Source: a phage. Taken from it: a stretch of DNA of 64,000 bases. How positions within the stretch are numbered: position 1 is the first letter of the stretch; the number at the start of each line of letters is the position of its first letter. Both the position numbers and the translations under genes were made by a program. Under the pieces are notes generated by a model. The model ran no database searches, had not been told where the DNA came from, and saw only the letters and a list, made by a program, of their open reading frames with translations. The DNA is taken from the sequence record PZ402301.1, one strand, 5' to 3'. Below are positions 8,752-42,947 of the stretch, one piece after another.

Positions 8752-10317
8752 ATGACTATCAAAACTAAAGCTGAACTTTTGAACAAATGGAAGCCATTAC
8801 TGGAAGGTGAAGGTTTACCGGAAATTGCTAATAGCAAACAAGCGATTATCGCTAAAATCTTTGAAAACCAGGAAAAAGATTTCCAGACAGCTCCAGAGTA
8901 CAAAGACGAAAAAATCGCCCAGGCGTTCGGTTCTTTCTTAACAGAAGCTGAAATCGGTGGTGACCATGGTTACAATGCTACTAACATCGCTGCTGGTCAG
9001 ACTTCTGGCGCAGTAACTCAGATTGGCCCAGCTGTTATGGGTATGGTACGTCGTGCTATTCCTAACCTGATTGCTTTCGATATTTGCGGCGTTCAGCCGA
9101 TGAACAGCCCGACTGGTCAGGTATTCGCACTGCGCGCAGTATATGGTAAAGACCCAATCGCTGCCGGTGCTAAAGAAGCATTCCACCCAATGTATGGTCC
9201 AGATGCAATGTTCTCTGGTCAGGGTGCTGCTAAGAAATTCGCAGCTTTGAAAGCAAGTGATACTCTTGAAGTTGGAACTATTTACACCCACTTCTTCCAG
9301 GACACTGGTACTGTGTATCTGCAAGCTACAGAAGCTAAACAAATTGATTCCACTGCATCTGACGCAGCTAAATTAGATGCTGAAATTAAGAAACAAATGG
9401 AAGCTGGCGTACTGGTAGAAATCGCTGAAGGTATGGCTACTTCTATCGCTGAACTTCAGGAAAGTTTCAATGGTTCTACCGATAATCCATGGAATGAAAT
9501 GGGCTTCCGTATCGATAAACAAGTTATCGAAGCTAAATCTCGTCAGCTGAAAGCTGCTTACTCTATCGAATTAGCACAAGACCTCCGCGCTGTTCACGGT
9601 ATGGATGCTGATGCTGAACTGTCTGGTATTCTGGCTACCGAAATCATGCTGGAAATCAACCGTGAAGTTGTTGATTGGATTAACTACTCAGCTCAGGTTG
9701 GTAAATCTGGTATGACCCTGACTCCGGGTTCTAAAGCTGGTGTATTTGACTTCCAGGATCCGATTGATATTCGTGGTGCTCGCTGGGCGGGTGAATCCTT
9801 TAAAGCTCTGTTGTTCCAGATTGACAAAGAAGCAGTTGAAATTGCTCGTCAGACCGGTCGTGGTGAAGGTAACTTCATTATCGCTTCCCGTAACGTAGTT
9901 AACGTTCTGGCTTCAGTTGATACTGGCATTTCTTATGCTGCACAGGGTCTGGCTACCGGCTTTAACACTGATACTACCAAGTCAGTATTTGCTGGTGTTC
10001 TGGGTGGTAAATACCGTGTATATATCGACCAGTATGCTAAACAGGATTATTTCACTGTAGGTTATAAAGGTCCGAACGAAATGGATGCTGGTATTTACTA
10101 TGCTCCATATGTAGCTCTGACTCCGCTGCGTGGTTCCGATCCGAAGAACTTCCAACCAGTAATGGGATTCAAAACTCGTTACGGTATCGGTATCAACCCA
10201 TTTGCAGAATCCGCTGCTCAGGCTCCGGCTTCTCGCATCCAGAGCGGTATGCCTTCTATTCTGAATAGCCTTGGTAAAAACGCTTACTTCCGCCGTGTAT
10301 ATGTTAAAGGTATCTAA
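8752..10317 (+). CDS. 23: major capsid protein gp23
   Basis: 521 aa as T4 gp23; strongly biased codon usage typical of a highly expressed gene. Confidence 0.95.
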   Translation: MTIKTKAELLNKWKPLLEGEGLPEIANSKQAIIAKIFENQEKDFQTAPEYKDEKIAQAFGSFLTEAEIGGDHGYNATNIAAGQTSGAVTQIGPAVMGMVRRAIPNLIAFDICGVQPMNSPTGQVFALRAVYGKDPIAAGAKEAFHPMYGPDAMFSGQGAAKKFAALKASDTLEVGTIYTHFFQDTGTVYLQATEAKQIDSTASDAAKLDAEIKKQMEAGVLVEIAEGMATSIAELQESFNGSTDNPWNEMGFRIDKQVIEAKSRQLKAAYSIELAQDLRAVHGMDADAELSGILATEIMLEINREVVDWINYSAQVGKSGMTLTPGSKAGVFDFQDPIDIRGARWAGESFKALLFQIDKEAVEIARQTGRGEGNFIIASRNVVNVLASVDTGISYAAQGLATGFNTDTTKSVFAGVLGGKYRVYIDQYAKQDYFTVGYKGPNEMDAGIYYAPYVALTPLRGSDPKNFQPVMGFKTRYGIGINPFAESAAQAPASRIQSGMPSILNSLGKNAYFRRVYVKGI

Positions 10318-13208: not shown

Positions 13209-13277
13209 GTTATCGAGTTGGTGCCATTATATACATCGTTTTCTGATTGTGTTTTGTGTGCTTTCAAAATGAAGAAA

Positions 13278-13291
13278 GGGGCCGAAGCCCC
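13278..13291 (-). terminator. GGGGC-UUCG-GCCCC hairpin downstream of hoc on the minus transcript
   Basis: On minus strand reads GGGGCUUCGGCCCC followed by UUUCUUCAUUUU; 6 nt after hoc stop. Confidence 0.55.
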
Positions 13292-13296
13292 TGATA

Positions 13297-14427
13297 TTAT
13301 GGATAGGTATAGATGATACCAGTTTCTAAAGCAGTTTTATGAATGATGTATCCATTACGCGATTCTTGAACATCAACTTCTGGATAGTCTTTCATCATCT
13401 TCTGAAGAGTGTAACGATGCAAGTAGTACTTACTATCTGGGTCGTCAGTTTTCCAGTCTTTACCTTCTTCAGTCATTTTTTGGATTTCATCCATAACCCA
13501 CCAACCGCACCAGATATAAGCTGAAGTACGATGTGGAAGAGGATGAACATAAGGTAATTCACCTTCTGGTTCCGGAGCAACTTTATCAGTCACTTGAACT
13601 TGACCTGTTGTTTTAACTGTTTTACTATCATAGTCAGTTGCTGTAACGACAGCAGTAACTTCAATAGTTTGACTTCCAATAGATGAGGTGTCAACGGTGT
13701 ATACGTTAGTTGACCCTTCTACAGGAGAAGAATCTTTCTTCCACGAGTAAGTAATTTGTGCTGCCTCAGGTGCGCCAGTAACATTAGCAGTAAATGTAGC
13801 CGAAGCATCTTGCTGAACATTAATAGAAGGAGGAGTCAATGTAACCTGTGGATTCATTGTCTTCTTATTAACAGTCAGTGATACTTCATTAGAAGTAACG
13901 CTCAGTGCATCATAATCTGCCGCGGTTACTTGAGCTACACACTTAATTTTTTTAACTCCGCTTGTAGTAGGAGTGTAATTGAATGTAGCACTAGTTGCTT
14001 CGCTCACAGGAGAATCATCTACATGCCACTGATACGTAGCAGATGCACCTGATGGTTGAGAAGCTAAGGCAGCAGTAAATTGAACTGGGGTTCCAATTAC
14101 TCCAGCAGCAGGACTAGCAGGAGTTACAGCTAAGGTAGTTGTCTGTGTCTTATTTTGAACTGTGATAGTTGTAGTAGCTTCTGCTGTTTCAGGTTCAGAT
14201 TCTGCAACTTGATTGGTTGCAACTACTTTAATAGTCTTTTGACCGGCAGGTCCTTTTAGTACATAACTAAAAGTTGCTTCAGCTCCATCTTGTGGAACAT
14301 CATCTACAGTCCAAGCATATGTAATAGGTCCATCTCCAGTTTGACCACTGGGTGTAGCAGTAAACTGCTGAGTCTGATCTATAACTCCAGTAGGTGTTTT
14401 AGGAGTTATATCAACTGTAAAAGCCAT
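13297..14427 (-). CDS. hoc: head outer capsid protein Hoc (Ig-like repeats)
   Basis: 376 aa as T4 Hoc; T/S/V-rich repetitive beta-rich sequence consistent with tandem Ig-like domains. Confidence 0.9.
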   Translation of the reverse strand: MAFTVDITPKTPTGVIDQTQQFTATPSGQTGDGPITYAWTVDDVPQDGAEATFSYVLKGPAGQKTIKVVATNQVAESEPETAEATTTITVQNKTQTTTLAVTPASPAAGVIGTPVQFTAALASQPSGASATYQWHVDDSPVSEATSATFNYTPTTSGVKKIKCVAQVTAADYDALSVTSNEVSLTVNKKTMNPQVTLTPPSINVQQDASATFTANVTGAPEAAQITYSWKKDSSPVEGSTNVYTVDTSSIGSQTIEVTAVVTATDYDSKTVKTTGQVQVTDKVAPEPEGELPYVHPLPHRTSAYIWCGWWVMDEIQKMTEEGKDWKTDDPDSKYYLHRYTLQKMMKDYPEVDVQESRNGYIIHKTALETGIIYTYP

Positions 14428-18965: not shown

Positions 18966-19715
18966 ATGGCAAACATTATTCGTTGTAAATTACCAGATGG
19001 TGTTCATCGTTTTAAACCATTTACGGTAGAAGATTATCGAGATTTTTTGTTAGTTCGAAACGATATAGAACATCGGTCACCACAAGAACAAAAAGAAATA
19101 ATTGCTGATTTAATTGCTGATTATTTTGGAGACTATCCGAAGACTTGGCAACCATTTATATTTTTGCAGGTATTTGTAGGGTCAATAGGTAAAACTAAAG
19201 TACCGGTCACATTTGTATGTCCAAAATGTAAAAAAGAAAAGACAGTTCCATTTGAAATATATCAAAAAGAATTAAAGGAACCTGTTTTTGATGTAGCTAA
19301 TGTTAAAATTAAATTAAAGTTTCCTTCTGAGTTTTATGAAAATAAAGCAAAGATGATTACTGAAAATATTCATTCTGTTCAAGTAGATGAAATGTGGTAT
19401 GATTGGAATGAAATTAGCGAATCAAGTCAAATAGAACTTGTTGATGCCATCGAGATAGAAACATTAGAAAAAATTCTCGATGCAATGAATCCTATTAATT
19501 TAACATTGCATATGTCATGCTGTAATAAGTATGTAAAAAAATACACTGATATAGTAGATGTGTTTAAGCTATTAGTTAACCCAGATGAAATATTTACTTT
19601 TTATCAAATCAATCACACGCTCGTAAAAAGTAATTATAGCTTAAATTCAATAATGAAAATGATTCCTGCTGAGCGCGGATTCGTATTAAAACTGATTGAG
19701 AAGGATAAACAATAA
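18966..19715 (+). CDS. 51: baseplate hub assembly catalyst gp51
   Basis: 249 aa as T4 gp51. Confidence 0.88.
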
Positions 19716-20890
19716 TGAGTATGTTGCAACGCCCAGGATATCCAAATCTCAGCGTTAAATTATTTGATAGCTACGACGCTTGGAGTAATAATAGATTTGT
19801 TGAATTAGCTGCTACTATTACCACATTAACTATGCGGGATTCTCTTTATGGCCGAAATGAAGGAATGCTGCAGTTTTATGATTCTAAAAATATCCATACA
19901 AAAATGGATGGAAATGAAATAATTCAGATTTCTGTAGCTAATGCAAACGATATTAATAATGTTAAAACAAGAATTTATGGATGTAAGCATTTTTCAGTGT
20001 CAGTAGATTCAAAGGGTGATAACATCATTGCTATTGAATTGGGAACTATTCATTCTATAGAAAATCTTAAATTTGGCAGACCGTTTTTCCCTGATGCAGG
20101 TGAATCTATAAAGGAAATGCTTGGCGTCATTTATCAAGACCGCACATTATTAACTCCAGCAATAAATGCTATAAATGCTTATGTTCCTGATATTCCGTGG
20201 ACTAGCACATTTGAAAACTATTTGTCATATGTCAGAGAAGTTGCTCTAGCTGTAGGAAGTGACAAATTTGTATTTGTGTGGCAAGACATCATGGGAGTTA
20301 ACATGATGGACTATGATATGATGATAAATCAAGAACCGTATGCAATGATTGTTGGTGAGCCGTCTTTAATAGGTCAATTCATCCAAGAATTAAAATATCC
20401 ATTAGCATATGATTTCATTTGGTTGACTAAATCGAATCCTCACAAACGTGATCCAATGAAAAACGCTACTATCTATGCGCATTCATTTTTAGATTCTTCA
20501 TTGCCAATGATTACTACAGGAAAGGGCGAAAACTCTATTGTAGTGTCAAGGTCAGGTGCTTATTCTGAAATGACTTATAGGAATGGATATGAAGAAGCTA
20601 TTCGTCTTCAAACTATGGCACAATATGACGGCTATGCTAAATGTTCTACTGTCGGTAATTTTAACTTGACACCTGGTGTTAAAATTATTTTTAATGATAG
20701 TAAAAACCAATTTAAAACAGAATTTTACGTTGATGAAGTTATTCATGAATTATCAAATAATAATTCAGTAACTCATCTATATATGTTCACCAATGCAACG
20801 AAACTGGAAACAATAGACCCAGTTAAGGTTAAAAATGAATTTAAATCTGATACTACCACTGAAGAAAGTAGTTCTTCCAATAAGCAATAA
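19715..20890 (+). CDS. 27: baseplate hub protein gp27
   Basis: 391 aa as T4 gp27. Confidence 0.9.
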
Positions 20891-25205: not shown

Positions 25206-25209
25206 CAAT

Positions 25210-25227
25210 GGGGACCGAAAGGTCCCC
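25210..25227. terminator. GGGGACC-GAAA-GGUCCCC hairpin between convergent genes 54 and alt.-3
   Basis: 7-bp GC stem with GNRA loop 5 nt after gene 54 stop, followed on plus strand by TATTTTTATTTA. Confidence 0.6.
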
Positions 25228-25233
25228 ATATTT

Positions 25234-25524
25234 TTATTTACGGAATGAAATAAAAGCAGAAACTGAAGCAACTAAACTGTCTTCAATATAAACTTCAATT
25301 TTTACTGGAGCTTCTGACTCAAATTTACCTGTTACTACACCTTGGAAAATACTTTCAGTCTGTTCTGGCTTTGAAAAATTTTCAGAAGGAAAAATTCCGA
25401 ACTTTTTATCTGTTCCAAAAATTTTGATAAATTCATCATAAACTGCTTCATTAAAAGCATTATCAGCAGGAATAACGCCTTCAACTACAAGTTCTTGACC
25501 TAAAAAGCGTAAAGAAGATTTCAT
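25234..25524 (-). CDS. alt.-3: hypothetical protein (positional alt.-3)
   Basis: 96-aa ORF with ATG and GAGGA Shine-Dalgarno; directly downstream of predicted early promoter. Confidence 0.7.
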   Translation of the reverse strand: MKSSLRFLGQELVVEGVIPADNAFNEAVYDEFIKIFGTDKKFGIFPSENFSKPEQTESIFQGVVTGKFESEAPVKIEVYIEDSLVASVSAFISFRK

Positions 25525-25531
25525 TTTGTGT

Positions 25532-25585
25532 TCCTCATGTTATGTCAGTAAGATTATTATAACACAATACGAGGGACTTGTAAAC
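25532..25585 (-). promoter_or_regulatory. early promoter cassette (copy A of 54-bp repeat): GTTTAC -35, 18-nt spacer, TATAAT -10, leader with GAGGA
   Basis: Minus strand reads GTTTACaagtccctcgtattgtgtTATAATaatcttactgacataacatGAGGaacacaaaATG; 51/54 identical to 41303-41356. Confidence 0.6.
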
Positions 25586-27642
25586 TACATCTTGAACTTT
25601 TTAGACATTCCGTTGATGTTAACCAAAGAAGCTAAGATTTGAGAAACTTCGTTTTCCTCTTCTTTTGATTCTTCTACAAGGAATTGATTAAACCCAGCCA
25701 TTGGACGAACTTCACCAGTTTCCATCAGATGATCGCCATCATATACCGATTCTTCTAATTGTTCAGAAGGAGGAACGATTGTACCTTCGATTAAATACTT
25801 GTTATAAGCAGTTTCTTTCATCATGTACGTGCTCACTTTATTAATCTTCAGCAAAATTCCACGTGGTAAAATAACTTCAGCTTCTGACGGAAATCCTGAT
25901 AAATGACCCGGAACGATAACTTTGATTCGCTCAGCTCCTTTAATTACCATACCTACGCTAGTTTCAGCATCTTCATTCGCATAAGCAGAATGACTGCCCA
26001 TATGCATCAAATCTTCTGCGTCAACTGAACCTTCTCCTTCACCAGAAAATACTGCACTGGAATCATCTAGAGCCATATAGTTTTTACCATACTCACCGAA
26101 GATATTTGGTTTAAGCGATGTGGATACGAAGTTCTTAAAATAGAACATTTTATTTTCAATATTATGACGTAAAGTTTTAAAGGTAACTTCTTGGCCACGG
26201 TAAAGCGTAGTTCCTGGAGGAAGAACTGATCCTTTGGCAAAAGCAGAATCCATCGTCTCGATGTGTTTAATAGCTCGTTCCATATATTCTTCACGAGTAG
26301 AATCTGGTTTACCCAAGAGGAACGAGTTCATTTCAACATATGAATCTGCACAATAATCTTCAATTACATCAGACTCAGCTTGAGTTAATCCTTTTGGAGT
26401 TACTTCAGTACTTGCATATTCATACGCTTGAGAAGCAGACTCATTAATCAATTTATAAACGCCATTCATGACAAATTGAACAATAGCTACCTTTTCATCT
26501 GGTGTGGCTTTAGAACCTTTAACTAAATCATTGACAATTTTCTTAATAACATCAAAGCTATTAGAAATATTAATGTCAGCAAGATCGCTTAAAATTTTAT
26601 CAGTTTTATAATCAAAAAATTCTTTATTCTTTAAATATTCTTGAGAACCTTGATATGTTATATCGCTCTGTAATTTAATAGATGGATCACGTAAACGCGC
26701 ATGGGCCAATGCAATATGATTTCGGAAGCTTTCTAGTTCATAATCACTAGATTTAAAACGAGAAGCACTCCTCATACCACCGATAGCTCCTTTGCTGAAG
26801 TTTGAACCAACCTGAATAACGCCGGAGTTCATTGGTCCTTCTGCTTTATATACCGGAACTTTAGATTCAAACTCTTGATATTTCTTAGCAGCGAAGCTAT
26901 CACCCTGAAGTGAAGCATCGACAGTAGAGTATTGAGCTTGTGCTGCTAATCGACGACTAATTTTAGTTTTCTGAATAACAGCTTGATCCGTACGCTTATC
27001 ATTTTCTAGAGCAATAGAAGCGGCAACAGCAACAGCTTTAGGAACAGCATTGCCTGTTTTAACATCTACATAAACATCACCAACCTTTGATTCAACCTTT
27101 GTGAATAACTCAGTTGAAATAGGAGGTACACCTGGAATGTCTTCTAAATTGGCATTTTTACGGTAAACCATAATATATGCATACTTTTTATCATAGTCCC
27201 AGATTTCCTTTAAAAGAACATATCGACCTGCTCCTTTAGTACGTACTAAACGGTCAGCAATAACTTGCATTTGACGAGTTGCACCGTTTGTTTTACTCTT
27301 TAGTACGCGGAATAGGCATGCGTCAATTTTATACTGTTTCATTGTTTGAAGAGCAGTATCAAAAACCGCATTAATGACACCAATTGGATTTCCACCCAAG
27401 TTTTTAAGTTTAACTAATGATAGTTTCTCATTAACACCTATCATTACAATATGCATCATTTTATCGCCTGGCTTAACGTTTTTATTTGTATCACCGCCAG
27501 AGGTGTATGTACAAAATCTAAATCCAGGAAGCACACTTTCTTCACCGGCTTGAATAGCAAAAATTTGAGGGATTTTATGCTTAGGATTTAAATTAACAAC
27601 CGGCGCCGAAGCGCCGTCAAATAATTCTGTAATAAGTTCCAT
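25585..27642 (-). CDS. Alt-like ADP-ribosyltransferase paralog (685 aa)
   Basis: Starts MELITELFD like Alt; N-terminal half closely similar to the adjacent 698-aa gene; C-terminal half has ART-like motifs (LYRGQ, FVSTSL, EAEVILPRG) but diverges. Confidence 0.85.
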   Translation of the reverse strand: MELITELFDGASAPVVNLNPKHKIPQIFAIQAGEESVLPGFRFCTYTSGGDTNKNVKPGDKMMHIVMIGVNEKLSLVKLKNLGGNPIGVINAVFDTALQTMKQYKIDACLFRVLKSKTNGATRQMQVIADRLVRTKGAGRYVLLKEIWDYDKKYAYIMVYRKNANLEDIPGVPPISTELFTKVESKVGDVYVDVKTGNAVPKAVAVAASIALENDKRTDQAVIQKTKISRRLAAQAQYSTVDASLQGDSFAAKKYQEFESKVPVYKAEGPMNSGVIQVGSNFSKGAIGGMRSASRFKSSDYELESFRNHIALAHARLRDPSIKLQSDITYQGSQEYLKNKEFFDYKTDKILSDLADINISNSFDVIKKIVNDLVKGSKATPDEKVAIVQFVMNGVYKLINESASQAYEYASTEVTPKGLTQAESDVIEDYCADSYVEMNSFLLGKPDSTREEYMERAIKHIETMDSAFAKGSVLPPGTTLYRGQEVTFKTLRHNIENKMFYFKNFVSTSLKPNIFGEYGKNYMALDDSSAVFSGEGEGSVDAEDLMHMGSHSAYANEDAETSVGMVIKGAERIKVIVPGHLSGFPSEAEVILPRGILLKINKVSTYMMKETAYNKYLIEGTIVPPSEQLEESVYDGDHLMETGEVRPMAGFNQFLVEESKEEENEVSQILASLVNINGMSKKFKM

Positions 27643-27645
27643 GAT

Positions 27646-29742
27646 TTATCCTTGAACGAACTTGTAAGGCATGTTTGTAATATCTATGCAAGACGCAATA
27701 ATTCCAAGAGATGATTCTACTTTCTGTTTAACATTTGATGAAACAAATGATGCAAAGTCAACTCTGTCTTCTATTTCAATATCACCTGTCATTGCAACTA
27801 CTTCACCAGTTTCCATTAGACGGTCACCGTCATAAATGACTGATTCGGTGAGTTCTTCCGTGGTCATAACTTCAGCTTGAATGAGTTTTGTATTATTAGA
27901 TGTTGTTCCGTCATTATTAGAAGCATCAGTTATTTTATTAACTTTGACCATCAATCCGCGTGGTAGAATAACTTCAGCTTCTGTTGCTATTCCGAGATTT
28001 CCTGGATATACAACATTAACTTTATGAGCTCCATCAATTGCCCATCCTATTTGAACTTTAACGTATTCAGGATTTTCTTTATACGCTCTTATTTCGTTTG
28101 GATTAATAGTTATTCCTTCTTCATTTTTATCAACTGTCAATTCATTACGAGCTTCTGGTTCTAAAAGACCAATACCAGCATGTGTAATTCCAAAACGTCC
28201 AAAAATGATAGGAGTTAAAGAAGTAGATACAAAATTTCTGAAATAGAACACTTTATTTTTAACTAGCGCTTCGTATATAGGAGCAGTCATACTTTGAGCA
28301 CGATAAACTGTAATGCCTTCTGGTATACGGTCACCGTTTTCAAAAGCTGAATCTAAGTTATTTATAGCAGATTCAATTTCTTTTTCACTCATTACATCAT
28401 ATCGTTCTGGATTGTAGCGTCCTAAAAGAAGATTATTGATGTCAGTATATCCTGAACCACAATATTCTCTAATGCCGCGCTTTTGCGATGGAGTATATTT
28501 AGAACCATCACGTGCAATGGTAATATCAATCATTGGACCTGCACCAATTCCAGAAAAGCTATAAATCATTCGTTTGAGGAATTTAGTTTTTGCTGCGTTC
28601 CAGGAATTTTTAGTTATTTCTTCCCAGACTTCATCTGGCTGTCCTTTACGGGTTTTATTATGTTTATCAAGCCAAGTATCTTTATATTCTTCAAAGAATT
28701 TATTAATAGCTGCTGCATACTTCTCTAAACATTTTATTGAAGTAGTTGGTTCATTTTTGATCGCATTAAGAATTACATCTTTAATTTTTTCAGAAACTTC
28801 ATTAACCTCACTTTTTGAAAAGAATTTATAGTCATAGTGAAGTTCATCTGCAGTCCCTTCAGCAATAATTTTTGCTGCCTTAGTTTTAGAAGCTAATGAA
28901 TTAATTCCAAGCTTCATTTCTTCTGCTTCGGGAATTAAAGGAGCTGTAGCAGGTTTATTGAAATTAGCTGCGGTAGATTCATATTTCTGGAATAATTCAC
29001 TTTCAAATCTAGAAGATTCCAATGACTGACTTTGTGCAATTGCTCTACGGGAAATTTTAACTTTAACGATTACAGCTTGGTCAGTGCGTTTATCATTTTC
29101 TTGTGCAATAGATGCTGCAATTGCCTCATTTTTAGTTACTTGAGCTCCAGTATCTTTATTGATATAAACATCGCCGACTTTCGATTCAACTTTAGTAAAG
29201 AGCTCGGTACTAATTTCCGGAACTCCTGGAATGTCTTCTAGTGATACATTTTTGCGATGTATAAGAATATATGCGTACTTTTTATCGTAATCCCAGAGTT
29301 CCTTAAGAAGGACGTATCTGCCACCTGAACGACTGCGGATAAGTCTATCAGCAATAAGTTGAATTTGTCGAGCTTGGCCAGCAGTTTTAGACTTAAGAAT
29401 ACGGAGCATACAGGCATCAATTTTATACTGACGCATCGTCTGCATTGCAACAGTAAAAACTGAATTGATATAATTAATTGGGCTTGGACCGAGACCTTTT
29501 AATTTAGCAATTGAACCTTTAGCAGTTAATGTAAAAGGAACAATATGCATCATTTTATCGCCCATCTTTAAATCGCGATTAGTATCACCTCCAGATGTAT
29601 AGGTACATAAACGAAAGCCTGGTTGTTCAATTGCGTCATCAACATGAACTGAAAAAATTTGCGGTATTTTCTTCTTTGGATTTAAGTTTGTAATCGGAAG
29701 AGTAGTATCTTCGTCAAATAATTCTGTAATGAGTTCCATCAT
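27646..29742 (-). CDS. alt: Alt ADP-ribosyltransferase, packaged internal head protein
   Basis: 698 aa; N-terminus MMELITELFDEDTTLPITNL matches my recall of T4 Alt (true start may be the second ATG at 29739); ART motifs VYRAQ, FVSTSL, EAEVILPRG. Confidence 0.88.
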   Translation of the reverse strand: MMELITELFDEDTTLPITNLNPKKKIPQIFSVHVDDAIEQPGFRLCTYTSGGDTNRDLKMGDKMMHIVPFTLTAKGSIAKLKGLGPSPINYINSVFTVAMQTMRQYKIDACMLRILKSKTAGQARQIQLIADRLIRSRSGGRYVLLKELWDYDKKYAYILIHRKNVSLEDIPGVPEISTELFTKVESKVGDVYINKDTGAQVTKNEAIAASIAQENDKRTDQAVIVKVKISRRAIAQSQSLESSRFESELFQKYESTAANFNKPATAPLIPEAEEMKLGINSLASKTKAAKIIAEGTADELHYDYKFFSKSEVNEVSEKIKDVILNAIKNEPTTSIKCLEKYAAAINKFFEEYKDTWLDKHNKTRKGQPDEVWEEITKNSWNAAKTKFLKRMIYSFSGIGAGPMIDITIARDGSKYTPSQKRGIREYCGSGYTDINNLLLGRYNPERYDVMSEKEIESAINNLDSAFENGDRIPEGITVYRAQSMTAPIYEALVKNKVFYFRNFVSTSLTPIIFGRFGITHAGIGLLEPEARNELTVDKNEEGITINPNEIRAYKENPEYVKVQIGWAIDGAHKVNVVYPGNLGIATEAEVILPRGLMVKVNKITDASNNDGTTSNNTKLIQAEVMTTEELTESVIYDGDRLMETGEVVAMTGDIEIEDRVDFASFVSSNVKQKVESSLGIIASCIDITNMPYKFVQG

Positions 29743-33720: not shown

Positions 33721-34098
33721 TTAAATATCAAATTCATTAAGAACTACATCAAAGATCGCTTCAAGATGCTCAGGTTTAGCTCTGTTACTCAGAATATGAC
33801 GAATCCAAGTTTTAACCAGAAGCTTACGATTGACGCCATTCCAGCAAGGATGAGTACCTAAATCGCGTTGACGGAAATCATCATCTAATGCGATTTTAAA
33901 AGAAGAATCTTCTTTCGTGATTGAAACCGTGATGCCATTTTCAAATCGCATATAAACGTAGTTAGGAGTCATATACTGTTCAATTTCGCATACTGATCCA
34001 TTTTGATGTTTCCAAAGGCAGATAGTATCAATAGAACCTGCAATACCGTTAGAAACATATTTACGTTCAAAGTTGATGTAGTTCATTTTATTCTCCAA
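33721..34098 (-). CDS. 30.6: hypothetical protein (positional 30.6)
   Basis: 125-aa ORF. Confidence 0.6.
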   Translation of the reverse strand: MENKMNYINFERKYVSNGIAGSIDTICLWKHQNGSVCEIEQYMTPNYVYMRFENGITVSITKEDSSFKIALDDDFRQRDLGTHPCWNGVNRKLLVKTWIRHILSNRAKPEHLEAIFDVVLNEFDI

Positions 34099-34111: not shown

Positions 34112-34151
34112 GGTACAGGTATATAATATCATATCCTGTACCAAAGTAAAC
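34112..34151 (-). promoter_or_regulatory. predicted early promoter (GTTTAC -35, 17-nt spacer, TATTAT -10) overlapping an 8-bp inverted repeat GGTACAGG/CCTGTACC
   Basis: Minus strand: tGTTTACtttggtacaggatatgaTATTATatacctgtacc, upstream of 30.6 RBS. Confidence 0.5.
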
Positions 34152-34153
34152 AA

Positions 34154-34486
34154 TTATTTTACTACTTTCCAGTGCTGCATGTCAAGTTTACCAACTTTTT
34201 TCATCTTCTCAATTAAGCGTTCTGCACGTTGGCGAGCTGTAACATAATACCATTCGCCTAATTCATTTTGTTCAATTTTTCCAACGATTACTGTATTCAA
34301 TTCATAAATCCAACCAGTAAAGAAATTATGAACTTGAATTGTAAAGGTGAAATCTGTTCCCATACCTTCTGTTGTTTCTACTTCAATAATATCACCTTCA
34401 ACTGCCATTAAGAACCACATAGTTTCGTTATATTCACCATTGAAACATTTAGCTTTAACCGCAGCGTTCAGATTAATCGTTTTCAT
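34154..34486 (-). CDS. 30.7: hypothetical protein (positional 30.7)
   Basis: 110-aa ORF. Confidence 0.6.
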   Translation of the reverse strand: MKTINLNAAVKAKCFNGEYNETMWFLMAVEGDIIEVETTEGMGTDFTFTIQVHNFFTGWIYELNTVIVGKIEQNELGEWYYVTARQRAERLIEKMKKVGKLDMQHWKVVK

Positions 34487-37217: not shown

Positions 37218-37450
37218 AGTACGCCATACACCCTTTGTGCTTCAACTAATCCATCAAAATCCAGTTTAAGATGTGTTATTTGGTCACCATCACCTGGATT
37301 CACAATTACTAATACTGAACGAGGAGTTTCGGTAATAACACGAACCGATGTTTCTGGAAATCGTTCAGAAACCTTATTTACCAATTCCTGAGCAAATAGT
37401 TTAACTTTTTCTTGGAATTCTTTAACAGTAATTGGTTTTTCACTTAGCAT
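37214..37450 (-). CDS. cd.2: hypothetical protein (positional cd.2)
   Basis: 78-aa ORF. Confidence 0.55.
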   Translation of the reverse strand: MLSEKPITVKEFQEKVKLFAQELVNKVSERFPETSVRVITETPRSVLVIVNPGDGDQITHLKLDFDGLVEAQRVYGVL

Positions 37451-37971
37451 GTTGATCCTAGCTCCTTACTTTCAACGTTTTTAACTAATTTGACAGAAAC
37501 TAATTCAGCATCTCGGGTAATCATTACCGGACCTTCTTCATACTCTTCAAGATATTCTAGAGCTTTCTTTTTAGCTTCTTCCTTCGTATCAGTTTGAGCA
37601 TAGATATAGAACATACAACCAGTAATACCTACTACTTTCCACTTAATTTCTTTATCAGCTTTAATTTCAAATTTACTTGTAGAATCATCTTTTTGAACTT
37701 CTTCGAAAAAAGAATATTCTAACATATAAGCAATTGAAAATAACGGGCTAACTTTATAGGATTCACCCATTACATCAACAGCTTTATACCAACAATCATC
37801 AATTTCACGTTTAATGCTAATAACATTTTTCGCAGGATCTATTTTTACTTTAAATGAATTTTCCCCAATAAACTGGGCAATTCGTTTATTAGCCCCGCAA
37901 GTTTCATTAAAAATATCTTTATATCCAGCTTTAAAGCGATAAACCTTATCTTCTTCAAACCATTCGCTCAT
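37444..37971 (-). CDS. cd.3: hypothetical protein (positional cd.3)
   Basis: 175-aa ORF. Confidence 0.6.
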   Translation of the reverse strand: MSEWFEEDKVYRFKAGYKDIFNETCGANKRIAQFIGENSFKVKIDPAKNVISIKREIDDCWYKAVDVMGESYKVSPLFSIAYMLEYSFFEEVQKDDSTSKFEIKADKEIKWKVVGITGCMFYIYAQTDTKEEAKKKALEYLEEYEEGPVMITRDAELVSVKLVKNVESKELGSTC

Positions 37972-40451: not shown

Positions 40452-40801
40452 TTAGAAAGGTCCTGGATGTCTTCTGCGAACTTGTTGAAGGAGTTGTTGA
40501 TTTGTTTTTCAACCAATCCTGGCTTATGAGCCACCACATCCGCCTTCTTTGCATCTTTGCGCAGTTTTTCATTTTCACGCTCAATAGCAGCAATTGCCTC
40601 ACGATTTTTATTATTCATCGCATCAATATAATTATACTGAATTCGCAAATTATCTAATGCTAAAGCGTTTTCATTGGATGTTTTTGTAATTTCAGTAACC
40701 GATGTTTCTAATCTTTCTACCTTATTTTTTAAAATAATAGATGTTCCGCCAAATGCTATCACAAGTAATAGCAAGCCTGCTGTCGTATTACTTAATTGCA
40801 T
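40448..40801 (-). CDS. pseT.3: inner-membrane protein with periplasmic coiled coil, predicted i-spanin (Rz equivalent)
   Basis: 117 aa; N-terminal hydrophobic anchor AGLLLLVIAFGGTSIIL followed by heptad-like charged helix. Confidence 0.6.
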   Translation of the reverse strand: MQLSNTTAGLLLLVIAFGGTSIILKNKVERLETSVTEITKTSNENALALDNLRIQYNYIDAMNNKNREAIAAIERENEKLRKDAKKADVVAHKPGLVEKQINNSFNKFAEDIQDLSK

Positions 40802-41298
40802 AAAGTTTTAATAACCTCTACAATATCGTCTTGAGAAAGACCGTTAATTAAAATATGATGTTCAGCCGGAGATTTAGAAATTTTAAAGCATGCCTCAACA
40901 TCTTCTGCCATATCTGATGCACTACGATTTGGATTACTAATTCCAAGACGATGTTTTCCCGTCAAAGGATTAACGATGATGTAGCATTTACAGTTATTGA
41001 TATGAACATTAGGTTGAGTCTGATTAATGAACACATCACAATCATATTTCGCAAGCTGATTTTCTAAAAAGACTTTCATCTCCTCAACCGCATCAGGAAG
41101 CATATCACGGGCTTGCTCAAGACGACGATTTCGATATTCTTTAATAGTCGTTTTCCGCTTGACTTGCTTAGCTAAATCTTTCTTAAGATCGGTGATATAT
41201 CCAACTCGACGATTTCCTTTAAATACAGAAATCCCATCTGTAGTATCACCGTATGCTTCAACGACCATTTCAGTAGTAATAAGCTGTAAATCCATCAT
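40792..41298 (-). CDS. alc: Alc, inhibitor of host transcription on cytosine-containing DNA
   Basis: 168 aa (167 from second ATG) matching T4 Alc size and position between pseT cluster and rnlA. Confidence 0.8.
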   Translation of the reverse strand: MMDLQLITTEMVVEAYGDTTDGISVFKGNRRVGYITDLKKDLAKQVKRKTTIKEYRNRRLEQARDMLPDAVEEMKVFLENQLAKYDCDVFINQTQPNVHINNCKCYIIVNPLTGKHRLGISNPNRSASDMAEDVEACFKISKSPAEHHILINGLSQDDIVEVIKTLCN

Positions 41299-41302
41299 AA
41301 AG

Positions 41303-41356
41303 TCCTCATGTTATGTCAGTAAGACTACTATAACACAACACGAGGGACTTGTAAAC
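41303..41356 (-). promoter_or_regulatory. early promoter cassette (copy B of 54-bp repeat) upstream of alc
   Basis: 51/54 nt identical to 25532-25585; GTTTAC -35 at 41351-41356, -10 TATAGT, leader GAGGA. Confidence 0.55.
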
Positions 41357-41359
41357 AGC

Positions 41360-42947
<1,588 letters not shown>

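Follow-up and report, generated by a model that had tools for sequence, protein, structure and literature searches.

The window analyzed here, a 64-kb stretch of phage DNA, belongs to a Tequatrovirus and is 97-99% identical to many T4 relatives. It contains two copies of a 54-bp sequence that lie 15.7 kb apart on the same strand (25532-25585 and 41303-41356) and agree at 51 of 54 positions. Copy A precedes a homolog of alt.-3, and copy B precedes alc. The genes and repeats at the two loci are as follows.

25234..25524, minus strand: alt.-3 homolog, 96 aa, Pfam DUF5498, downstream of copy A
25532..25585, minus strand: copy A (alt.-3 locus), putative early promoter, leader, and Shine-Dalgarno sequence (SD)
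25585..27642, minus strand: alt paralog, directly upstream of copy A
40792..41298, minus strand: alc, 168 aa, Pfam ALC, downstream of copy B
41303..41356, minus strand: copy B (alc locus), same sequence as the Tequatrovirus consensus and the T4 alc copy
41360..42520, minus strand: rnlA, directly upstream of copy B (a mechanical open reading frame whose start is possibly too far upstream)

The initial annotation had described a nearly identical same-strand pair placed 5' of two minus-strand gene starts. The gene assignments confirm the placement, and the pairing itself is upheld by pairwise identity, by dinucleotide-preserving shuffles of the window, none of which yields a match to the repeat, and by blastn-short, which found no third copy over the 64 kb. 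Read on the coding strand, the repeat runs in both copies from the G of GTTTAC to the A of GAGGA, and blastn-short shows a sharp loss of identity at either side of each. The 40 nt upstream of GTTTAC are unrelated between the copies, homology beginning exactly at this motif. At the alt.-3 locus, that first G is also the G of the TAG stop codon of the alt paralog; at the alc locus, the rnlA stop codon lies 3 nt before the repeat. All three differences are an A in copy A and a G in copy B, at cassette positions 18, 29, and 32 (window 25568/41339, 25557/41328, and 25554/41325); copy A departs from the Tequatrovirus consensus by the derived changes G18A, G29A, and G32A. T4 has the same pair, upstream of alt.-3 and alc, with identity at 53/54 positions.

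Could two strong early promoters of separate origins simply have converged on the same sequence? The extended consensus is common to T4 early promoters (PMC2988021), and unrelated early promoters in the window, which served as the baseline, are already 53-75% identical in gapped alignment. These ordinary promoters, however, share the consensus only, whereas the pair shares spacer and leader as well, with 94-100% identity over 54 nt that includes nonconsensus positions, and the two copies are identical in many genomes. The identity also ends abruptly, and the same two loci are only about 72% alike in sister genera (RB69 and JS98). Convergence is thus exceedingly improbable, and we rejected it on the sharp homology boundaries and the identity at nonconsensus positions.

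The neighborhood of copy A has features of its own. Two full-length alt paralogs stand in tandem on the minus strand (25585..27642 and 27646..29742; 685 and 698 aa), both ADPrib_exo_Tox proteins. JS98, AR1, and G28 have the same tandem pair; RB69 has a single alt, and T4 has one alt plus alt.-1/alt.-2, which a note in the T4 record attributes to an old duplication of the initial part of alt. KKFKM* is the C-terminal end both of the window alt paralog and, still, of the gene that precedes the T4 copy. Copy A had been said to abut the duplicated alt locus. It does adjoin an alt paralog, but the junction of the duplicates (27642/27646) is about 2 kb off. Between the convergent alt.-3 and gene 54 lies a perfect 9-bp G+C-rich palindrome with T-runs on both strands (25208-25229), a bidirectional terminator-like site.

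What does the repeat encode? A consensus scan recovers the promoter and SD elements that had been proposed for it (GTTTAC at -35, TATAAT or TATAGT at -10, and a GAGGA SD), which can be placed as follows.

25579..25584, minus strand: -35 TTTACA (within GTTTACA), copy A, from the consensus scan
25556..25564, minus strand: extended -10 TGT plus TATAAT, copy A, from the consensus scan
25549, minus strand: predicted transcription start, copy A; an A, 7 nt past the -10 (spacing rule)
25532..25536, minus strand: SD GAGGA of alt.-3, 7 nt before the ATG (start codon 25524..25522)
41350..41355, minus strand: -35 TTTACA, copy B, from the consensus scan
41327..41335, minus strand: extended -10 TGT plus TATAGT, copy B, from the consensus scan
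41320, minus strand: predicted transcription start, copy B (spacing rule)
41303..41307, minus strand: SD GAGGA of alc, 4 nt before the ATG (start codon 41298..41296)

Copy A reads TTTACA-17-TATAAT, matching the consensus at 11/12 positions, and copy B reads TTTACA-17-TATAGT, matching at 10/12; each has TG at the extended -10. The substitution G29A in copy A thus converts TATAGT to a perfect TATAAT. The predicted start is the A at cassette position 37 in both copies. The late TATAAATA box is not present in the cassette, and the promoter is of the sigma-70 early type. It shares with the T4 Pe promoters the -35, TGn, and -10 elements of their UP/-35/TGn/-10 architecture, as well as early genes downstream (Hinton 2010, PMC2988021). 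To judge by its sequence, then, the cassette is a strong early promoter of the T4 type. The T4 GenBank and RefSeq records annotate no promoter feature at either locus, and our literature search found neither a genome-wide map of T4 transcription starts nor a paper on alt.-3.

The initial annotation also mentioned a short inverted repeat. An inverted repeat is indeed there, but it is not short: folded as RNA, the consensus forms a hairpin of 18 bp that occupies 42 of the 54 nt, with a dG of -22.0 kcal/mol and a z score of -5.4 (0/200 shuffles are as stable). Positions 12-25 pair with 53-40 and positions 28-31 with 39-36, leaving a bulge at 26-27 and a loop at 32-35. In the window, the hairpins are placed as follows.

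41304..41345, minus strand: hairpin, copy B; 18 bp including 3 G-U pairs, dG -22.0, z -5.4
41345..41332, minus strand: 5' arm, copy B (promoter spacer plus TG)
41317..41304, minus strand: 3' arm, copy B (leader plus the GAGG of the SD)
41329..41326 with 41321..41318, minus strand: apical stem, copy B, closing the loop 41325..41322
25533..25574, minus strand: hairpin, copy A, same register; dG -14.2, z -3.0

The hairpin of copy A is weaker because of A-C mismatches at positions 18 and 29. In this structure, the 5' arm carries an anti-SD sequence and the 3' arm runs to the GAGG of the SD. The -10 hexamer (positions 25-30) extends from the upper end of the main stem through the bulge into the apical stem, and the predicted start is at the apex; an RNA begun at position 37 is nearly unstructured (0 to -1.8 kcal/mol). 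The Tequatrovirus sense strand folds far more stably than the antisense strand (-22.0 versus -12.8) because of the three G-U pairs, which points to a structure of the coding-strand RNA rather than a palindrome in DNA. Neither cassette qualifies as an intrinsic (Rho-independent) terminator, and no U-tract follows the stem, the sequences there being ACACAAAAUG and CUUUAUGAUG. Rfam 15 at gathering score gave zero families in the whole window.

The 3' arm also contains an AUG (CAUGAGGA) that opens a mini-ORF of five codons, MRNTK* or MRTL*, on the minus strand (25538..25521 and 41309..41295). Its UGA overlaps the main start codon (AUGA) at both loci, an overlap kept although the sequence past GAGGA is unrelated between them. 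The same arrangement occurs in Winklervirus LC53 and not in JS98, KP17, AS6, or Bragavirus. It is probably coincidental.

Is the hairpin conserved beyond Tequatrovirus? Of the ten other lineages examined, nine keep the rnlA-alc junction, with a gap of about 60 nt; Acinetobacter phage Ac42 instead has pseT.2 upstream of alc. The hairpin layout recurs upstream of alc in Dhaka-, Gelderland-, Karam-, Jiaoda-, Braga-, and Winklervirus (z -3.8 to -5.7). In all six genera, the bases directly following GTTTACA can pair with the SD region of alc, and the loop holds the -10 and the start. The arms themselves differ by genus, for example UCUCCGUUUAGUU/AACUAAACGGAGA, UCCUCAUCAG/CUGAUGAGGA, and AACCUCUCAUUUUUA/UUGAAAAUGAGAGGUU. 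Covariation was counted on stems anchored at the base, because a MAFFT alignment of the alc regions of the seven genera left the stems out of register. Across the first 10 stem pairs, 69 of 70 cells are paired, and 9 of the 10 columns show changes on both sides; none of 10000 column shuffles reaches 69/70, and registers slid by 1-3 nt pair 29-34 cells. The hairpin at alc has therefore been kept, with covariation, as the arms diverged. Two exceptions were seen: it is missing in RB69 (z -0.2), and in Kanagawavirus PEi26 it ends short of the SD. If the structure acts on translation as proposed below, such a gate would therefore be dispensable in some lineages.

In T4 infection, Alc is responsible for the shutoff of host transcription. 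We favor the reading that the repeat is a complete regulatory module of alc, probably one in which an early promoter sits inside an SD-sequestering hairpin that would block translation of read-through RNA. The sequence elements, the hairpin, and its covarying conservation at alc can be observed directly, and from them we infer the start site and the effect on translation. No terminator-like site was called between rnlA or alt and its cassette, so upstream transcripts should read through. An RNA coming from rnlA, or from alt, would hold both arms, and its SD would be locked in the 18-bp helix of about -22 kcal/mol and go untranslated. An RNA made from the cassette's own promoter would start near the apex of the hairpin, have the 3' arm only, and be open to ribosomes. 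Since the internal promoter is early, translation would be limited to the immediate-early burst, and synthesis of Alc would thereby be confined to it.

Predicted SD accessibility follows this scheme at alc. The probability that the SD is unpaired is 0.00-0.06 in a 245-nt read-through context (eight loci) and 0.48-0.77 for transcripts from the predicted +1 in seven of the eight hairpin-bearing phages. For the alt.-3 copy, the predicted values for long and short transcripts are 0.23/0.19 in the window and 0.13/0.32 in T4, a contrast that is weak or absent. In published T4 data, alc and alt.-3 have early RNA and early protein, rnlA has early RNA and late protein, and alt.-1/alt.-2, just upstream of alt.-3, have middle RNA. 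This timing of alc, alt.-3, rnlA, and alt.-1/alt.-2 is consistent with the gate model.

Early promoters enclosed by hairpins are also found elsewhere in the window. Minus-strand GTTTAC motifs at 34151 (upstream of ORF 33721..34098, 30.7-like), 38031 (upstream of ORF 37444..37971), and 49769 have the hairpins GGTACAGG...CCTGTACC (z -4.9), GGTAGAG...CTCTACC (z -4.2), and GGGTAGTAGTA...TACTATTACCC (z -3.6), respectively. In all three, the arms flank the -10 and end before the SD, and the sense strand is more stable than the antisense strand. Hairpins enclosing early promoters may thus be a more general feature, or have a more general role, in the phage. A second, weaker SD-sequestering layout is present at minus-strand GTTTAC 34543 (upstream of ORF 34154..34486, 30.8-like), where the spacer UUCCUUUGU pairs with the SD-containing ACAAAGGAG (dG -12.1, z -2.1).

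Might a selected hairpin have some main role other than gating translation? It could serve RNA processing (e.g., by RNase III), stability or attenuation at the 3' end of rnlA or alt, or a function at the DNA level, where extrusion of a cruciform or hairpin would affect promoter melting or recombination. The SD would then lie in the 3' arm merely because the intergenic space is short. Several observations fit this alternative: the three significant promoter hairpins described above leave their SDs free, as does the Kanagawavirus hairpin at alc; stems outside Tequatrovirus are almost all Watson-Crick, so that both strands fold about equally; and intergenic stem-loops of T4-like phages can terminate transcription (PMC2839356, PMC4122927). 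It does not readily explain why, in seven genera, the 3' arm stops exactly on the SD and the anti-SD follows directly after GTTTACA. Termination is further disfavored by the lack of both a U-tract and a terminator-like call, and an action on DNA is disfavored by the 9 kcal/mol that three G-U pairs add to the Tequatrovirus sense RNA relative to the antisense, the other promoter hairpins likewise favoring RNA over DNA in being more stable on the sense strand. We regard a nongating role as unlikely, though far from negligible, and retain the translational gate as the preferred reading.

The alt.-3 locus looks quite different in other genera. The alt.-3 promoters of RB69, JS98, Marfavirus, Moonvirus, and two Kanagawaviruses contain GTTTAC and have no significant structure (z -1.6 to +0.8), showing a spacer hairpin of 5-6 bp only. 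In RB69 and JS98, the identity of about 72% between the alc and alt.-3 loci falls inside the 53-75% range of unrelated early promoters. This spacer hairpin, CCACA-AGGA-YGTGG or TCCACATGGAAGTGGA, is common to the alt.-3 promoters of several genera (JS98 at about 9942-10000, Marfavirus and Moonvirus at about 190-250 of the extracted sequences). The presence of the alc layout in seven genera and its absence at alt.-3 in five other genera point to copying of the alc module to alt.-3 in Tequatrovirus. By these comparisons, the module is ancestral at alc, and the Tequatrovirus lineage gained a copy of it at alt.-3 while the flanking genes stayed put. In the Tequatrovirus ancestor, it replaced an unrelated early promoter of alt.-3, probably via ectopic recombination at the shared GTTTACA/ACATGAGGA ends.

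A swap in the opposite direction may have occurred in Mosigvirus, where an alt.-3-type promoter may have replaced the alc module of RB69 with loss of the gate. The identity of the RB69 alc promoter is 67.8% to the alt.-3 set versus 62.0% to the alc set, a weak difference in which one value is an artifact of end trimming. In the extracted RB69 sequences, the alc promoter (upstream region, about 26015-26080) has a small spacer hairpin typical of alt.-3 promoters (ACACC-AAGGAA-GGTGT), and it has the leader ATCAACAACA(Y)GAGGA in common with the RB69 alt.-3 promoter (upstream region, about 13252-13310).

How many copies does a genome carry? A search with the 54-mer gave 999 places in 500 Tequatrovirus records, with exactly two places in 499 of the 500. 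These population figures come from an annotated phage collection, which was used because exact-pattern scans elsewhere gave too few stretches (IMG/VR, 9; a metagenome collection, 8). Phage vB_EcoM-G28 alone has three places, owing to a 351-bp tandem duplication (19658-20062 of the extracted sequence) that contains the 3' end of rnlA, the cassette, and the first 148 nt of alc. As its junction lies within the coding sequence of alc and rnlA, the cassette is a passenger there. In VR7 (Gaprivervirus), a partial duplicate of the 5' end of alc lies between rnlA and alc (110-343 of the extracted sequence), and a terminator-like hairpin, AAAAAGGGG...CCCCTTCTTT, follows rnlA. The rnlA-alc junction seems prone to local duplication, VR7 and G28 being unrelated phages.

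The copy number bears on the suggestion, made in the initial annotation, that the repeat resembles the mobile promoter-early stem-loop (PeSL) cassettes, recombination between copies of which would shuffle genes among T4-type genomes. PeSLs are multicopy elements of hyperplastic regions, where they flank ORFans and indels; each combines an AT-rich tract with a strong promoter that is preceded by a G/C-rich terminator stem-loop and followed by an SD and a start codon (Arbiol 2010, PMC2839356; Comeau 2014, PMC4122927). The likeness is real: here, too, a compact intergenic unit joins a stem-loop and an early promoter of the PST/T4 PeSL type (TTTACW-N17-TAYWAT) to an SD and a start codon, and promoter regions serve as substrates of recombination, one having evidently been replaced by the other. 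The alt region upstream of copy A also varies in paralog content. Several features argue against membership nonetheless. (i) Two copies per complete genome mean that there is no dispersed family, and the sole extra copy comes from a tandem duplication in G28 that is local and has its breakpoints inside coding sequence. (ii) There is no terminator stem-loop upstream, the only significant stem-loop being the one that encloses the -10, the start site, and the SD; nor is a conserved AT-rich tract part of the repeat, since homology starts at the -35 box. (iii) Both junctions lie between conserved genes, not ORFans, and the flanking genes are unchanged in most of the other genera examined. Comparison of the alt-alt.-3 and rnlA-alc adjacencies across genera revealed no synteny breakpoint at the cassette, adjacency being conserved in Tequatro-, Mosig-, Dhaka-, Gelderland-, Karam-, Jiaoda-, Braga-, Kanagawa-, Winkler-, Marfa-, and Moonvirus. 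(iv) A crossover between these direct repeats would delete 15.7 kb, including genes 30 and 31. The cassette is not associated with gene gain, loss, or exchange, and we consider PeSL-type mobility improbable. Two checks proposed along with the idea, a genome-wide search for further copies and a comparison with related phages, went against it.

If the copies do not shuffle genes, do they exchange sequence with each other? The commonest sequence is the same at both loci, GTTTACAAGTCCCTCGTGTTGTGTTATAGTAGTCTTACTGACATAACATGAGGA (18 copies sampled per locus). Diversity in the sampled genomes is lowest in the arms (0.00-0.015), against 0.018-0.042 in the coding flanks and about 0.11 in the -10 and loop. 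G32A occurs in 9 of 18 sampled copies at alt.-3 and 4 of 18 at alc, and at alc in 37 of the 500 records. The linked haplotype 29A+32A is present in 29/500 records at alt.-3 and 5/500 at alc. Two of four phages carrying this haplotype at alc, G28 and PP01, have it at alt.-3 too, against a background of about 6%. The same derived haplotype at both loci suggests occasional ectopic gene conversion over the 54 bp; alternatively, the common variants may reflect recurrent G-to-A mutation, or close kinship of G28 and PP01. The direct repeat is about as long as is reportedly enough for T4 recombination (Singer et al. 1982, as relayed in PMC2839356), and haplotypes common to the two loci fit conversion. 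Unlike that short-homology recombination, what we infer here is nonreciprocal transfer only, and neither deletions nor duplications across the 15.7 kb, the products of a crossover, were seen. The earlier view of the repeat as a candidate recombination substrate thus survives in part, for transfer between loci and not for gene shuffling. Near-identity of the copies would be kept by layered constraint (promoter, pairing, and SD) together with this occasional conversion.

The two loci tolerate change to different degrees. At alc, the dG is -20.4 or lower in 18/18 sampled copies. Six of seven variants in the first alc sample (15 copies) are neutral or stabilizing: G16A makes a G-U pair A-U, T27C is in the bulge, and the remaining ones are in the loop. 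One copy of the larger sample also carries G40T, yet keeps a dG of -21.2. Copies at alt.-3 range up to -14.2, the value of window copy A, which is the weakest hairpin sampled there, and include the destabilizing changes G18A (+6.2), C12A (+3.2), C42T (+1.9), and G29A (+1.6). Copy A itself is a decayed variant, with a better -10 and a weaker hairpin. From the weak contrast in predicted accessibility and the tolerated destabilizing variants, the gate seems to be important at alc and relaxed at its new alt.-3 site.

The closest parallel lies in the T4 genes e, soc, 49, and I-TevI, whose SDs are hidden in long transcripts and whose internal-promoter transcripts are translated (Uzan and Miller 2010, PMC3014915). 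As in those genes, the SD of the cassette is predicted to lie in a helix of RNA initiated upstream, the promoter is within the structure so that its own RNA lacks the 5' arm, and the structure is kept in relatives (seven genera, with RB69 and PEi26 as exceptions). Two differences stand out. The internal promoter of e, soc, 49, and I-TevI is late and delays translation, whereas that of the cassette is of the sigma-70 early type, giving the opposite timing; and the cassette module has been duplicated whole at a second gene, its translational effect being predicted here. On balance, we think that the cassette probably belongs to this kind of control, the same mode working with the opposite timing. 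Two reviews (PMC3014915 and PMC2988021) do not name alc among the structure-gated genes and offer no explanation for the confinement of Alc synthesis to the first minutes. Although control of this sort by an alc hairpin is absent from both, the cassette sequence has been public since T4 was sequenced, and an earlier description may exist.

What, then, does the repeat mean for T4-like phages? Annotators should treat it neither as a mobile element nor as a hotspot of rearrangement. For Alc, a conserved hairpin with its own early promoter offers a simple, testable mechanism of timing, and it would carry the classic T4 principle of a promoter within an SD-sequestering hairpin beyond late-only expression to early-only expression. 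Taken together, the two loci would be a clean example, provided by nature, of regulatory rewiring through short-homology conversion, in which the same 54-bp module sits on two unrelated genes, strongly constrained at one and drifting at the other. More speculatively, it is conceivable, if doubtful, that modules of promoter plus translational gate are exchanged in either direction between unlinked T4-like early genes by ectopic gene conversion, with the genes themselves unmoved. If this is true, the timing of Alc synthesis would differ between genera, and the alc hairpin would be a conserved, early-only counterpart to the late-only gates of e, soc, 49, and I-TevI.
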